From IMG/VR virus record IMGVR_UViG_2718217716_000005: DNA of 37,433 nt; one strand, given 5' to 3'. Both the position numbers and the translations under genes were made by a program. Under the pieces are notes generated by a model, which did no database searches, was not told the DNA's origin, and saw only the letters and a program-made list of their open reading frames with translations. Every line of letters starts with the position of its first letter. Positions within the stretch are counted from its first letter, which is position 1. Below are positions 1,579 to 28,180 of this stretch, piece after piece. Source of the stretch: a virus. Lineage: Duplodnaviria > Heunggongvirae > Uroviricota > Caudoviricetes.

Positions 1579-1613
1579 AAACCGGCAGAGGACACCACCG
1601 GTTTGTATTTTTA
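1579..1613 (+). terminator. Stem-loop (aaaccgg ... ccggttt) followed by a T-run on the plus strand
   Basis: 7-bp stem at 1579-1585 / 1598-1604, then gtattttta. Lies downstream of the 1150-1443 gene and overlaps the stop of the minus-strand ORF 1611-1865. Confidence 0.4.
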
Positions 1614-1865
1614 CATCATGGTACTGTCAGCTCCGGGCTGAGCTGGTTCTGGTTGCTCTGGCTGCGCGTCGGTTTTCGGCTCATTATCAGCATCACTGGC
1701 CGCAGCAGCTGGTCCAATAAGTTTTGCCAGCACCTCGTCAACGTAAGTGTCGATTTGTGCCTCAAAATCTTTGCGGACCTGCGCTTTCAGCAACTTATTT
1801 ACTTCACCGGAATACAGTGCCTGTTTTACCAGGTCTTCAGTGACGGTGCCTTTAATTTCTGGCAT
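1611..1865 (-). CDS. Hypothetical acidic protein (84 aa)
   Basis: Strong ribosome-binding site AAGGAGG with 6-nt spacer before ATG at 1865. Helical N-terminus, acidic Pro/Glu/Gln-rich C-terminus. Confidence 0.55.
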   Translation of the reverse strand: MPEIKGTVTEDLVKQALYSGEVNKLLKAQVRKDFEAQIDTYVDEVLAKLIGPAAAASDADNEPKTDAQPEQPEPAQPGADSTMM

Positions 1866-1900
1866 GTATATCCTCCTTATGCGGGAATACAGCCCTGCAA

Positions 1901-2083
1901 TCAGGGCTGGGTCGGGCCTTTTGGGAGCGGAGCGGCCTGTGCTGTTTTACTGAGCTTTTCGGCTGCTGCGTCATCAATTTTGCGGCGAACATAATTTCTG
2001 ATGGCTTTATATCCACTGCTCACCAGATATAACGCACATACCGCCGTGCAGAAATAAAGCAGCATCGTATGAACAAATGTCAT
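1901..2083 (-). CDS. Hypothetical small membrane protein (60 aa, one predicted transmembrane helix)
   Basis: AAGGTAAGG-type ribosome-binding site. Hydrophobic stretch MLLYFCTAVCALYLV followed by a basic region. Confidence 0.45.
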   Translation of the reverse strand: MTFVHTMLLYFCTAVCALYLVSSGYKAIRNYVRRKIDDAAAEKLSKTAQAAPLPKGPTQP

Positions 2084-2197
2084 ATAACCTTACCTTTGAT
2101 ATTGACTACAGAAACAGTTTTCAGCTAAAAAGTAACCGCGTACATAATGGCCTTCTTTTCAGAGGTTGTAGCTTTCCTTAATGGGTTTGGAATATCA

Positions 2198-2241
2198 CCC
2201 GCCAGTCAACAAATGGCTCTTTGACCGGCGGGATTTTTTTA
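2198..2241 (+). terminator. Stem-loop cccgccagtcaa ... ttgaccggcggg followed by T7 on the plus strand
   Basis: Seen directly. The T-run is on the plus side only, so it is an efficient terminator only for plus-strand (antisense) transcription; on the minus strand it is a stem-loop without a U-tract just 3' of the esterase gene. Confidence 0.45.
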
Positions 2242-2247
2242 TCCTGC

Positions 2248-4317
2248 TTACGCGTTATTCACTTCCACCACAATGCTGTCAATCAGCACCGGGTATGTTG
2301 CACCGTTAGTGATATCGGTCACGCGTAACTTGTCTGCCGTAAACGTGCCAACCGGAGACTGCGACAGCATGAATGGTGTCCCGTCCTTACCATCAATGAC
2401 CGGCGTCACCTCAATACTGTTGTTACCGGCAAAACGGAAGCCCAGCGTATGCCACTCATTATCAAATGCGCTGAATGCCCCCAGCTTCGTGTTCTGCGCC
2501 GTGTTTCCCTTGTGATACATCACGTTAAGGTCTGTGGCATCGCTCTGTACGTAGAACGACGCCAGCAGGTTATGACCGGCATTACCTTCCAGAGTAACCC
2601 CTTGTGGCAGGGCAGAAACCGGCCAGTACAGCGCCAGTGCGTACTGATTAGCCGTAAGCGCGCCATCGAGTTTAAAACGACAACTGACAAGACCACCTTT
2701 ACCCAGCAGGTCCGCACCATTACCGGCATCATGCTCAAGATACCAGGAGGATTTGCCTGTTTCCTTGGTCAGTTTCATGGCCTTACCACTACCAGCTCCG
2801 GCATCATCCACGATTTGAGCCTTACCGCCTCCGGCAGTCCAGCCCTGTGGTGCCAGCTGTCCTTCAGACTCTGATGCCCGGTAAGCAAACAGGGTGCTCA
2901 TCGTCGTGGTGTCAGCCGGTGGTGTGGACGGTGTATCCGGCGATGGTGTTGATGGCGTGTCAGGTGATGGTTTTTCATCCGGCTGTGTCACAACCGGTCC
3001 CTGCATCACTTCAGGTGTGCGTCCCGCATGGAGCAGAATGGCTGAGGCCAGACGGTCTGAAATAATGCCCCTGCGTGCCCATGAGCTGAAATGGCTGTCA
3101 CGCTGTGTCGAGACAAAACTGCCCTGGGTACGGGATGCCGCACCGTAATACCCGACAGTCACAATATCCGGGTCTTCCGCCTGAGCATTCGTTGGCGTGT
3201 TCTGTCCATTCTCATCCGTCAGGAAAGGTACAAAGAAAATATTCTGAGTTTCCTTGCCTTTGTAGCCACCGTATACCGCCTCATATTTATCGGTGCCAGC
3301 GTTTTTCCAGTAATACGTGGTATCACCACAAATCCACGGTACCGTGCCAGCATTTCCACTCACGCACTGCGCAGCAAGCGGAGACAGGTCAGTTCTGAAC
3401 TGCTGAACCATGGTCGTGAATAAACCATTATGCTGCTGACTTCCCGATGCAAGGTCTGCTTCTCCCTGCATCCAGACCACAGCCAGAAGTTTGTTTTTCG
3501 GGTTCTTCGCCAGCGCCGCTCTGGTACGGCTTACCAGGTCCTGATACAGAGGTTTACCGACTCCCCAGCGTGAAGAATCAGCGGAAGCACCGCTGGTCTC
3601 ACTGAATGAACCGTCCGCCCCGGTGGTAAATGCTGACCCACCACGGCAACAGGGCACCAGAAGAATCCCGGCATTCTGCGGGATATAAGGCAGCAGTTTT
3701 TTGGCAATATGCAGCCCCTGACCGACAGTCCCGTACTGGCCTTTTGCCAGATCAGCTTTCGGGTGGTTTATCCCGCTCATATCCTGCACATCATGCAGGC
3801 AGTGATCTGCCGGAATGATGTCGTTATATGTACACGACGTACCGTCGGGCGTGACCGTGCTGCGGCGTGCCAGTTGCTTAATCCGTGGGTCCGGGCGGTC
3901 AAATGAATCCGGTAACGGAAGCCCTTCACCATAGGCCATGCCATTTGATTGTCCCGCCAGTGGGATCACATAGTAATACTCCGGCTCTGTGGTACTGCCA
4001 TTCGTGCTGCCGGAAGGCCCGGCGTTATCCGGTGCATTCCAGTCGGAGGGCGTGAGTGTTCCGGCCACGTCAGCTGTAATCGGAATGATGCCGGTCACGC
4101 CTGAACTGGTGATTTCTGCACTGGGATTACCGGATACCGGCATTATCCATAATGGCTCTTTCGTGCTGAAGCGGATCACGCAGTCTGCGAAGGTGATCCC
4201 CCCTTTATTACCCGAAGGCCTGAAAGGACTTTCAATAAATGCCACCGTGCCACCGGCAACCTTGACTGAAAACTCTCCGGGCATGGCGGAGAGCATTTTC
4301 CACTGGGAGTCTGACAT
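2248..4317 (-). CDS. Multidomain protein: N-terminal region, SGNH/SASA-type O-acetylesterase-like domain, Pro/Thr linker, C-terminal lectin-like beta domain (689 aa)
   Basis: Motifs YVIPLAGQSNGMAYGEG (GQSN nucleophile motif), VVWMQGEAD, DSHF (Asp/His of triad); linker PSPDTPSTPSPDTPSTPP; C-terminal ~220 aa Gly/Asn/Thr-rich. Sits where Mu carries the G segment and gin. Confidence 0.7.
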   Translation of the reverse strand: MSDSQWKMLSAMPGEFSVKVAGGTVAFIESPFRPSGNKGGITFADCVIRFSTKEPLWIMPVSGNPSAEITSSGVTGIIPITADVAGTLTPSDWNAPDNAGPSGSTNGSTTEPEYYYVIPLAGQSNGMAYGEGLPLPDSFDRPDPRIKQLARRSTVTPDGTSCTYNDIIPADHCLHDVQDMSGINHPKADLAKGQYGTVGQGLHIAKKLLPYIPQNAGILLVPCCRGGSAFTTGADGSFSETSGASADSSRWGVGKPLYQDLVSRTRAALAKNPKNKLLAVVWMQGEADLASGSQQHNGLFTTMVQQFRTDLSPLAAQCVSGNAGTVPWICGDTTYYWKNAGTDKYEAVYGGYKGKETQNIFFVPFLTDENGQNTPTNAQAEDPDIVTVGYYGAASRTQGSFVSTQRDSHFSSWARRGIISDRLASAILLHAGRTPEVMQGPVVTQPDEKPSPDTPSTPSPDTPSTPPADTTTMSTLFAYRASESEGQLAPQGWTAGGGKAQIVDDAGAGSGKAMKLTKETGKSSWYLEHDAGNGADLLGKGGLVSCRFKLDGALTANQYALALYWPVSALPQGVTLEGNAGHNLLASFYVQSDATDLNVMYHKGNTAQNTKLGAFSAFDNEWHTLGFRFAGNNSIEVTPVIDGKDGTPFMLSQSPVGTFTADKLRVTDITNGATYPVLIDSIVVEVNNA

Positions 4318-4621
4318 CGTCTTTTCTGCCTGTTTCTGAATTAAACAGAGTCAGAATAACAACCGCTGATAAATATGTGTTTTGCGGAAATTCAAAAAAA
4401 GCGTCACAGTACTTTTCGTGACGGAGCCGGTGAGGCAGGAACATAACGACAAAGAATGGACAGGCCAATACGATAACCGCATATTACCGGCTTATAATTG
4501 ATTTAACGATTCATGACGCTGCGTTCAGCACCTGAAAATATGCGTTATTTCAGAAACCCCTTGCCTGTATATGGCAATAGTATTGTTCCTGTTTTTATCA
4601 TTGATTTACATGGTGATGTTT

Positions 4622-5143
4622 ATGCAACTGATTAATGTTAAACGATATTACCCGGAACACAAACCCTATGGTAATGATGTACAGTATTTTCAGAGTGATG
4701 ATGGTAAGGATTTCTATGAGTCCCTGCCATTATTCACCAAAAAATATAAACTTTGTATAACACCTGACAGCGGCGTTATCTGCTCAATATCACAGGACGC
4801 CTCGGCGCTGTATCCTGCGGGATTTTCCGTGGTTGAGACAGACGAACTCCCTGAAGGCACTGATATTTCAGGAAACTGGAAGTTTGATAATGGCATCATC
4901 TCACGGCTTCCGGTCAATTACGACAAAAAAGCGGAAGAACTGCGCCAGTCATATCTTAATCAGGCATATGAACAAATTAATGACTGGAGAACAGAACTAC
5001 AACTGGGCACCATCAGTGATGAAGACAGAGCAGCACTGGCACGATGGATGGCATACATCAGTCAGGTGAAAAAAATGGTATTACCCGCCATTAAAACTGA
5101 AGCTGAATTTAACGCCATTAAATGGCCTGAGCAGCCACAGTAA
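4622..5143 (+). CDS. Tail fibre assembly chaperone (Tfa family)
   Basis: C-terminus ...DEDRAALARWMAYISQVKKMVLPAIKTEAEFNAIKWPEQPQ and central DASALYPAGFSVVE / GNWKFDNG are typical of Tfa proteins. Start chosen at Met 4622; the ORF could begin at 4571 or 4610. Confidence 0.7.
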   Translation: MQLINVKRYYPEHKPYGNDVQYFQSDDGKDFYESLPLFTKKYKLCITPDSGVICSISQDASALYPAGFSVVETDELPEGTDISGNWKFDNGIISRLPVNYDKKAEELRQSYLNQAYEQINDWRTELQLGTISDEDRAALARWMAYISQVKKMVLPAIKTEAEFNAIKWPEQPQ

Positions 5144-5146
5144 TAA

Positions 5147-5166
5147 AGAAGGCCGGAAGGCCTTCT
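5147..5166. terminator. Bidirectional hairpin terminator between convergent tail fibre and Tfa genes
   Basis: agaaggcc-ggaa-ggccttct, perfect 8-bp stem, with A-rich sequence before and T/A-rich after. Confidence 0.6.
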
Positions 5167-5174
5167 GAATATCA

Positions 5175-6056
5175 TTATATACTTGCAGCCGTCACCCATG
5201 ATCCATTTAACAGATACTGCAACGGCCGGTAATACACGCCGCCGACGTTATCTGCCGTATTCTTACCGACATCCTGTACTTTAATTCCGGTAAGAACATT
5301 GCCGCCCCCCAGATTCAGATCCCAGCTTTCCCATGTTCCGGGCATATGTGCGGTCACCGACCCCAGTCTTATGGCGGTTACTGTTCCTGATGAGATAGTG
5401 ATATCCTGCGTCCCGTCAAAGGGAACACCATTAATTGTGTGGGCATTTGCCAGCCTGTTCGCGGCAACGGCCGTTCCGTTCGATGGCAGGGCATTCGCCG
5501 CCCTGTTTACCGTTTCCCGTAAACCGACGTTATCGATAAAAGCCCCTTTATTCGGAATGTCTGCGCCGTGCTGCTCCCTGCGCAGGTAACGGTTATCACC
5601 TTCGCTCTTGCTGTAAACATCCAGATTATTACGGGCGGTTACCTTATTCTCCAGGTCGGCGAGATTCTGATCCTTCGCCAGGGCATTAACGTCACCGGGA
5701 CCAAGACTGTTTTTTGTGGCAAGCGTCCCCAGACCAAGATAACCACGGGCAAGACGCTGGGCCTCCGCACCGGCATCAGCAATTTCTTTCAGGTTATTTT
5801 TCCGGGAAAAAGCATTCGCAGCGATAATGGCTTTAATGGACAGCGTAAGCTGGTTTAACTGCGCCTTATCCGGCTGAATATTGGCTTCAGCCAGAATATT
5901 CAGCAGTTCGGCCTGGAGAATATTCAGCCAGTCCTGACCAATCCAGCTGATACCTTTTTGTCCGTCACCTTCGGTAAACCAGGTGGTGGTATTACTCTGC
6001 GCCGGTGCCAGCGCAGGCATATTCGCCACGCCGGAATTATTATCAACATGAAACAT
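5175..6056 (-). CDS. Tail fibre protein (short, ~293 aa; Mu S position)
   Basis: Follows the baseplate genes with ATG overlapping the upstream stop. Gly/Asn/Thr-rich C-terminus and coiled segments typical of fibre distal domains. The ORF track extends to 6110 but the overlapping Met at 6054-6056 is preferred. Confidence 0.7.
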
Positions 6057-6616
6057 TAAATAGTCTCCTCTTCGTGGCTGTTTGCATACACGTAAATAAA
6101 CGTCTGCCATGCAGGTTTATAACGGTTCAGAATACATTCCAGCGCACCGCCTTCATAAATACGCAGCGGCGTGAGAATATCATCCAGCACATTCATGTTC
6201 CGGTAGCCGGTTTCACTGTTAATCGTGACAATACTGACCCACTGCGAATCCGGTGATGGCTGAATGTCAATCTGATAACCAAACTCCGCCGCAAACCGGA
6301 TATAAAATTCACGGTTCAGCGAGGGCTTCATCCGGTATTTATTTCCGGCATAACGCTGTCGCTCCGTTATGGTGGCTCCGGCCATATCACATTCAGGAAG
6401 GCCGAGATAACGCTCCCAGTCTTCCAGCAGCAGGCGCGACGTGTCAGGGAAACGCTCGGCAAGCAGCTGTTTACCCGTCCAGGAAACACGCGCTGTCGAA
6501 TGACTGAGGCCCAGACATAATGATGCCAGTACGGATGACGGACGCTTGTCCCATGCCAGCCCGTCAGGCAGTAACTGCAACAGGGCGCGCTGATGTGGGG
6601 TCAGGGTTACAGCCAT
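6056..6616 (-). CDS. Baseplate/tail protein (Mu gp48-like, DUF2313-type)
   Basis: Position between the baseplate J-like gene and the fibre; translation overlaps both neighbours. Confidence 0.6.
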
Positions 6617-19946: not shown

Positions 19947-20123
19947 TCCGGCAGCATAAGCCGGTGTTTTTCAGGGCAGGTTTTGCGGGACTTCAGAAAG
20001 TGCTGACAGGGGAAAAATGAGAAAGGCGCTTCACGCAGATTTTAAAGCCCGTTAAATACAGGTTAGAAAATCACGACACGCGCCTGAAGAGGGTAAGGTA
20101 ATGTATTTGTATACCTTAAACCA
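19947..20123. promoter_or_regulatory. G-I intergenic region: candidate late promoter and candidate central strong gyrase site
   Basis: 177-bp non-coding gap at the genome centre between G-like and I-like genes, where Mu has P_I and its strong gyrase site. Contains hairpins (ccggc-agcataa-gccgg + T5; taaggta...tacctta). No motif-level confirmation. Confidence 0.35.
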
Positions 20124-20597: not shown

Positions 20598-20718
20598 ATT
20601 GCCTCCGCATAAAGGATGAATATAAAATAAACAGGCGGTCAGTGTACGCTTAACTGGTAAAGTCGGTGCCTGCCTCCGGGTGGATCATGTATGCGGGTTC
20701 GACCCCCGCCACTGACCG

Positions 20719-28148: not shown

Positions 28149-28180
28149 CGTGGGAAAAAGTGGGCAGGATTTGCGGAATA

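Follow-up and report, generated by a model that had tools for sequence, protein, structure and literature searches.

The 37.4-kb stretch of DNA analyzed here (IMG/VR record IMGVR_UViG_2718217716_000005, hereafter the window) presents the reverse strand of a Mu-like prophage in which a minus-strand tail fiber gene converges on a plus-strand gene for the tail fiber assembly chaperone Tfa. Our analysis indicates that this module is very likely a Mu-type inversion switch that was destroyed by a single illegitimate deletion of ~870 bp, leaving the fiber locked in one form. Where relatives of ~92-95% identity hold the serine invertase gene gin, a gix crossover site and the alternative variable fiber end S'v, the window holds a scar of 133 nt. 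The original prediction, made from the letters of the window, had offered two readings of the convergent pair, one as what is left of an inversion switch that can no longer turn, the other as a fiber that obtains its chaperone in trans from a gene with its own transcription. The first of these proposals is borne out by the gin, gix and S'v of relatives, by the vestiges within the scar, by the gix site retained in the fiber gene and by the occurrence of both orientations among gin-carrying relatives. The second is compatible with the first, and is not a competitor to it.

The scar consists of the extreme 3' ends of gin and S'v, which meet at a deletion junction at 4470/4471 (Table 1). Window positions 4202-4470 align to 2903-3164 of the intact prophage of strain STEC299 (L009) and to 4401-4670 of a second intact relative (L002), in which gin occupies 3104-3670 and 4604-5176, respectively. 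On the other side of the junction, window positions 4470-5136 align to 4035-4707 of L009, whose S'v ends at 4106. A search by tblastn with the Gin proteins of relatives recovers a C-terminal vestige of 28 amino acids at 4410-4493 (E-value 8e-5), and the hairpin that accompanies the vestigial gin stop is presumably the retained gin terminator. The S'v vestige is disrupted by small insertions and deletions that are common to all locked lineages. What has been lost comprises gin codons 1 to ~168, the gin-proximal gix site and all of S'v except its last ~22 codons. The Fis-dependent recombinational enhancer of Mu lies inside the 5' end of gin, and by analogy an enhancer in this phage would have gone with the 5' part of the gene. 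Deletion by the invertase itself was considered and rejected, given that the breakpoints, located in the 3' ends of gin and S'v, show neither similarity to gix nor clear microhomology; we class the loss as an illegitimate deletion.

No invertase and no partner fiber gene were found in the window by tblastn searches that used the Gin of relatives and three variants of S'v as queries. The sole matches were the Gin vestige, the resident variable fiber end itself and one weak match to S'v (E-value 1.1). Beyond the last ~21 codons of gin there is no other recombinase in the 37.4 kb, and of the alternative arm, an opposite-strand and promoterless variable fiber end in intact switches, only the 66-nt 3' vestige is left. 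The statement in the original prediction that an invertase and a partner fiber gene are missing thus holds across the entire window, although it had overlooked the gin and S'v vestiges (4404-4536) as well as the orphan gix site.

Table 1. Features of the locked fiber module and its outer neighbor (window coordinates)
Feature	Position	Strand	Description
NanS-like acetylesterase gene (SASA + DUF6645)	2248..4317	-	Pfam SASA, E-value 1e-12; DUF6645, E-value 4e-67
Terminator-like hairpin followed by T-run	4402..4423	-	7-bp stem, then CTTTTTTTGA; overlaps and lies immediately downstream of the vestigial gin stop
Vestige of gin-like serine invertase gene, ~67 nt (last ~21 codons)	4404..4470	-	Translation ...IGLSILCRYVPASPAPSRKVL compared with ...DIGLSTLYRYFPASPAPSPKVP in Gin
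Vestige of S'v 3' end, ~66 nt (last ~22 codons)	4471..4536	+	Reads TITAYYRLIIDLTIHDAAFST compared with TVTAYYRPIQYLINGSWRTAGST in STEC299
Conserved leader, ~86 nt, from S'v stop to Tfa start	4537..4621	+	Holds in-frame ATG 4571 and a weak hairpin at 4561-4577
Tail fiber assembly chaperone gene Tfa (Mu U family), 173 amino acids	4622..5143	+	The only one in the phage
GC-rich hairpin between convergent stop codons	5147..5166		8-bp stem, 4-nt loop
Tail fiber gene, Mu S homolog, 293 amino acids	5175..6056	-	Open reading frame; annotated by PGAP in the identical M3 prophage (882 nt)
Former inverted-repeat arm, ~150 bp	5386..5544	-	Inverted copy starts S'v in intact relatives
Orphan gix-like crossover site TTCCCGTAAACCGACGTTATCGATAA	5514..5539		Inside the fiber gene at the boundary of its constant and variable parts; central GA at 5526-5527

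The fiber gene has the split construction expected of a Mu S-type fiber. Residues 1-198 of its product match residues 1-191 of the Mu tail fiber S (PDB 5yvq_A; E-value 3e-45), and the protein matches PHROG 1833 ('tail fiber protein') with an E-value of 5e-139. The gene for gp48 lies directly upstream, and the two genes share overlapping stop and start codons; the fiber likely starts with an ATG at 6056 that forms TAATG with the stop codon of gp48. The N-terminus is 48% identical to SfMu S as far as the position of the crossover site, at about codon 176, beyond which the homology to Mu and SfMu S gives way to divergence. Over its last 73 amino acids, the protein shares 44-52% identity with the C-terminal ends of SfMu S', P1-like and P2-like H fibers. 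We therefore distinguish a constant part (Sc, ~5527-6056) from a locked variable part (Sv, 5175-5526).

The site at the boundary of Sc and Sv is identical to the fiber-internal site of the gin-carrying relatives L002, L004 and L009. Its former partner falls within the deleted interval, and no second gix site was found in the window, where the next best match (4127) has 6 mismatches in 26 positions and lies in direct orientation. A search for gix-like repeats, which the original prediction had proposed as a check, thus yields one site in the window and both sites in relatives. The inverted-repeat arm that surrounds the orphan site can likewise be traced, since window positions 5401-5544 match L002 5380-5238 on the opposite strand with 84.8% identity. 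The paired inverted repeats of L002 lie at 5247-5395 and 6431-6579, and equivalent pairs are present in L005, L006 and L009.

Judging by the mechanism of serine invertases, a segment that has a single crossover site and lacks its invertase could not invert even if a host Pin or Gin acted in trans. Escherichia coli genomes often hold several serine invertases, and Gin, Cin, Pin and Hin cross-complement one another, so a segment that is still inverted by the enzyme of another prophage deserves consideration. We regard this possibility as extremely unlikely, given that a single gix-like site remains in the window, that its gin-proximal partner lay in the deleted DNA and that one orientation is present in all seven genomes and all three metagenome contigs that carry the junction. 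The window lacks an invertase and an alternative arm, retains only one crossover site and is found in a single orientation, and it is therefore a deletion-locked derivative, and not an active-switch member, of the Gin/Cin/Pin/Hin-type segments.

The intact switch in related prophages

We searched 5,426 complete E. coli genomes for relatives of the window. Related prophages are carried by ~230 of these genomes, and in ~97% of these prophages gin and S'v occupy the position that corresponds to the scar. In the orientation of the window, the usual order is a NanS-like gene (-), a gene for a 'recombinase family protein' of 186-190 amino acids (-), a 5'-truncated 'phage tail protein' (+), Tfa (+), the fiber (-) and gp48 (-). 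The window has this layout except for gin and S'v. The Gin proteins of the relatives are 74.6% identical to SfMu Gin. A gix-like site, TTCCTGAAAACCTCGGTTTACGGGAA, adjoins gin, its inverted partner inside the fiber gene is the site retained in the window, and a repeat of ~150 bp lies inverted within each.

Several observations indicate that this switch turns. In silico inversion of the 1,317-bp segment at the central dinucleotide joins Sc to S'v in frame and places Tfa on the strand of the resulting fiber gene, 51 nt beyond its end. Uninterrupted DNA across the flipped junction is present in 7 genomes for one allele ('type A'; five at 99.7-99.8% identity, AST46 and CI5 at 94-96%) and in 10 genomes for a second allele ('type B') found in O157:H7 strains. 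Furthermore, in FORC_043 the fiber gene and Tfa lie on the same strand beside a Gin whose protein accession is identical to that of unflipped strains. From the presence of both orientations, Gin and inverted gix sites among its members, we conclude that the prophage family of the window has a working Gin-type switch. The Sv-on orientation accounts for ~90% of the genomes of this family, and every variant of the segment has one Tfa, oriented with S'v. A comparison with relatives that hold intact segments, also suggested by the original prediction, is thus answered by ~230 related prophages and by 17 flipped copies among those with gin. The invertase gene of one gin-positive relative, STEC2017-197 (L005, 3044-3534), is frameshifted, which represents a second and independent route to a locked switch.

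The O157:H7 relatives are probably Sp18-type prophages, as judged from matches to O157:H7 genomes. Sp18, a Mu-like prophage of O157 Sakai, carries an invertible host-specificity region whose genes differ from those of Mu (Asadulghani et al., 2009; PMC2669165). The type B prophages match the Tfa leader, Tfa and fiber of the window at ~92-95% identity and probably belong to the same phage family. These Sp18-type prophages still possess gin, S'v and the two gix sites, whereas the window is a deletion derivative locked in one orientation.

We propose the following history for the window. The ancestor would have carried an invertible segment of 1.3 kb between two inverted gix-like sites, one in the fiber gene and the other adjoining gin. 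This segment would have comprised, in order, the Sv end, a hairpin, a single opposite-strand Tfa and the opposite-strand alternative end S'v, with the gene for a Gin-type serine invertase just outside. Flipping would have exchanged Sc-Sv for Sc-S'v and placed Tfa on the strand of the fiber. One deletion would then have taken gin codons 1 to ~168, the gin-proximal gix site and most of S'v. As found in the window, the fiber is permanently Sc-Sv and Tfa is stranded convergent to it.

An alternative is that convergent fiber and Tfa genes are the original design of a phage that was never invertible and whose chaperone was always transcribed independently. This proposal agrees with the stability of the layout, which is identical in seven genomes and three metagenome contigs, and with the conservation of the Tfa leader. 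We nonetheless consider it very unlikely. The 3'-end vestiges of gin and S'v lie exactly at the scar, the orphan gix site in the fiber gene is identical to that of invertible relatives, and gin and S'v are found at this position in ~97% of related prophages. Chance similarity is an improbable source of the vestiges because the flanks of the junction align over 269-271 nt at 90-94% identity on one side and over 667 nt at 90% on the other.

Spread of the deletion junction

The identical junction, together with the same small insertions and deletions, is present in seven complete genomes (M1, M3, M18, CI5, JE86-ST02, JE86-ST05 and S1-CAM-01-A) and, with layout unchanged, in three metagenome contigs. 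The junction pattern had no match among species-representative genomes. The possibility that the missing 870 bp reflects an assembly collapse had to be weighed, since inverted repeats and mixed orientations can mislead assemblers. The chance of such an artifact appears vanishingly small, as both breakpoints map outside the repeats, to the 3' ends of gin and S'v, and the same junction recurs in complete genomes from different projects with several insertion sites as well as in the contigs.

The prophages with the junction occupy five different chromosomal sites in the six genomes whose insertion sites were compared (all but JE86-ST05), namely flgL in M1 and M3, the R gene of a type I restriction system in M18, xdhA in CI5, a position beside citF in JE86-ST02 and bcsA in S1-CAM-01-A. 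The presence of one junction at five sites indicates that the locked phage would still be able to lysogenize, and the distribution fits a single old deletion in a phage lineage that continues to lysogenize new hosts. This continued spread in turn implies that the Sc-Sv fiber works without a switch. The window shows 100% identity, throughout the compared region, to the prophages carried by M1 and M3, two mouse strains of E. coli. In M3, where the prophage interrupts flgL, PGAP marks zero pseudogenes within it, and apart from its destroyed host-range switch the window prophage looks complete. Strains M1 and M3 may be non-motile because flgL, which encodes a flagellar hook-associated protein, is disrupted; other locked copies interrupt bcsA, xdhA and the type I restriction R gene.

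Two locked prophages, those of JE86-ST02 (L010) and S1-CAM-01-A (L011), combine the same junction with a different Sv tip, which is 58% identical to the region of the window at 5144-5526. Their fibers are 303 rather than 293 amino acids long, and they carry a different intergenic hairpin. A different tip behind the same junction indicates that recombination replaced the fiber tip at about the time when the switch was lost, or later. This mosaicism also tempers the account of a single inherited deletion, as the junction could have spread partly by recombination and not by descent alone. A further reservation is that both the absence of inversion and the production of virions in the window prophage are predictions from sequence.

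Proposed chaperoning of the locked fiber tip

The Tfa of the window falls well within the Pfam family Caudo_TAP (PF02413; E-value 5e-18, 65.9 bits against a cut-off of 22.1), and it matches PHROG 136 (E-value 6e-54) and Mu U (PDB 5yvq_B; E-value 1.5e-15). Together with the open reading frames, these matches substantiate the observation that launched this analysis, that a short minus-strand fiber gene ending at 5175 faces a Tfa-family gene on the plus strand. The two genes proposed for 4571-6110 are real, but their starts must be moved. The fiber begins at 6056 instead of 6110, and Tfa begins at 4622, the start that is homologous to that of relatives and annotated by PGAP, instead of at 4571, an in-frame upstream ATG. 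Initiation at 4571 would give Tfa a hydrophobic extension of 17 amino acids, MAIVLFLFLSLIYMVMF; this ATG is without an obvious Shine-Dalgarno sequence and is absent in type A relatives.

Tfa does not follow the fiber gene. Instead, the two are convergent, with stop codons 31 nt apart and a hairpin between them, and in the locked orientation Tfa is antisense to the late operon. The homologous tips of SfMu and P2-like phages, by comparison, have a same-strand Tfa 1-3 nt after them. The shared hairpin, which had been noted from the letters of the window, proves to be a strong fold (predicted free energies of -14.8 and -15.9 kcal/mol on the two strands, z-score about -3.8), and none of 200 shuffled sequences folded as well. 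A hairpin is conserved at the equivalent place in relatives, and the one in the window is probably a bidirectional terminator.

Given this arrangement, the account we judge most likely, with roughly even confidence, is that Tfa would be transcribed independently of the late operon from its conserved leader and would act in trans on the Sv tip. The C-terminal motif of Sv is that of Mu S and S', SfMu S' and P2-like H fibers. Because Sv shares a family with tips that are directly trailed by a same-strand Tfa, it is suggested that Sv needs Tfa. In each of the five locked lineages compared, the chaperone gene has its full length, and its ratios of nonsynonymous to synonymous substitution rates (dN/dS) are 0.11-0.16. 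Among six lineages, mean pairwise identity is 95.0% in the leader, compared with 95.3% at Tfa codon positions 1 and 2 and 83.2% at position 3. The leader showed no significant RNA fold (z-score +1.2).

Three points count against this account. First, sigma-70 scans of the window and two intact relatives found no convincing promoter for Tfa, only matches at chance level. The sole plus-strand match upstream of Tfa, TGGACA-17-CATATT at 4457-4485, agrees with the consensus at 9 of 12 positions, again at chance level. Second, a candidate late (C-dependent) promoter motif, CCGCAAAWCCTGCCC-N14-TTAYGCT, which we derived from the sequences that precede the lysozyme and protease genes, has no copy near Tfa when as many as 3 mismatches are allowed. 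Third, the low dN/dS of Tfa may reflect selection in gin-positive donors. We have set this ratio aside as proof of selection in the locked state, the lineages being mosaic and the substitutions perhaps imported from phages with gin.

These points leave room for the idea that Tfa is a dead passenger, a relic that served the lost S'v arm alone while Sv folds without a chaperone. We consider this explanation a serious one, though somewhat improbable. It would account for relatives in the Sv-on state that have no co-transcribed Tfa and yet make up ~90% of genomes, and for the failure to detect a Tfa promoter. In addition, little time has passed since the deletion, given scars that are still 92-97% identical from lineage to lineage, so that an intact reading frame is weak evidence for selection. 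A relic is harder to reconcile with a terminal motif in Sv like those of Mu S/S', SfMu S' and P2-like H, each of which has a same-strand Tfa directly after it, with a gene that is full-length in five locked lineages at the dN/dS given above, and with a ~86-nt leader conserved to the same degree as nonsynonymous positions.

Independent transcription of Tfa, if it occurs, need not be peculiar to the locked lineage. The mini G segment of Sp18-type phages could be a one-chaperone switch in which Tfa is expressed from its own ~86-nt leader in either orientation and serves both tips in trans, a proposal that we advance tentatively and judge somewhat less likely than not. If it is true, the lineage without gin would be a natural experiment in which spread in E. 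coli does not require the switch and the antisense chaperone has been retained and used. In a bolder version, the deletion itself may have created a sigma-70-like promoter at 4457-4485 that points at Tfa. This match straddles the junction, with its -35 hexamer in the gin vestige and its -10 hexamer in the S'v vestige, and both hexamers are conserved in all locked lineages.

The regions upstream of Tfa (window 4524-4547, +) and of com/mom (1038-1063, -) each hold TTCAGCAC, TATGCGTTA and CAGCACCT within ~30 nt, with different spacing. These common motifs may be a shared regulatory site or a product of chance.

Known inversion systems, neighboring genes and biological meaning

The comparison of the window with the G segment of Mu, in which an opposite-strand chaperone belongs to the alternative arm, had been drawn correctly, as the gene order S-U-U'-S'-gin of SfMu attests. 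Sc is homologous to Mu and SfMu S up to the crossover point, a gix-like site lies within the fiber gene, the invertase of relatives shares 75% identity with its SfMu counterpart Gin, Tfa and Mu U are homologs, and the module occupies the position between gp48 and com/mom that it has in Mu. The family departs from Mu in several ways. Its ancestral segment is only ~1.3 kb and has one Tfa for two tips, whereas Mu has one chaperone per arm. Its variable ends span ~117-125 amino acids, and the complete fiber of the window has 293 amino acids compared with 504 for Mu S. A cassette of NanS-like, DUF1378 and DUF826 genes is placed between gin and com. Finally, the window itself, minus gin, one gix site and S'v, has no working switch.

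Cryptic prophages of E. coli offer a second comparison, as e14 carries a P segment with pinE, Rac and Qin carry stf/tfa genes with pinR and pinQ, and such elements are often partly degraded. Like the family of the window, they tie Stf/Tfa modules to Pin-family serine invertases. These lambdoid remnants usually keep the invertase, however, which is the part that the window has lost from a Mu-like phage that otherwise looks intact.

The remainder of the window is organized as expected for a Mu-like phage. Mom (PF25680) and Com are encoded at the left end and transposase genes lie far to the right, with Mu gp48 (PF10076), gp47 and baseplate genes to the right of the fiber. The NanS-like gene lies outside the switch and marks its outer boundary. 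We considered a link between Tfa and this neighbor and rejected it, as gin sits between the NanS-like gene and S'v in intact relatives and the two elements together separate the esterase gene from Tfa. The esterase is a NanS-p-like sialate O-acetylesterase (689 amino acids) that, with DUF1378 and DUF826 genes, occupies 1611-4317 (-) between the fiber module and com/mom. This cassette is flanked by gin and com in intact relatives. Within a phage collection, a 530-bp SASA region of this gene is ~76% identical to Stx-converting lambdoid phages, where it is annotated yjhS/nanS.

Elsewhere, the exact 15-mer CCGCAAA[A/T]CCTGCCC, followed 14 nt on by TTA[T/C]GCT, occurs at 19974-19988 (-) and 28162-28176 (-), upstream of the genes for the head protease and lysozyme. 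The two elements are probably the late-promoter signature of this phage, dependent on the C activator. PGAP reports a 'tRNA-OTHER' at about 20638-20717 (+) in the identical M3 prophage; ARAGORN and Rfam returned nothing in the window, and no Rfam family was found anywhere in it.

The convergent fiber and chaperone genes are thus mostly the product of ordinary decay of a known system, and the prophage should be annotated as a host-range-locked derivative of Sp18-type Mu-like phages rather than as an unusual fiber-gene design. The expression of Tfa in the locked lineage, and the need for it there, would tell whether Mu-type tips can share a chaperone that acts in trans or can fold without one, a question that bears on host-range engineering in Mu-, P2- and P1-type fibers.

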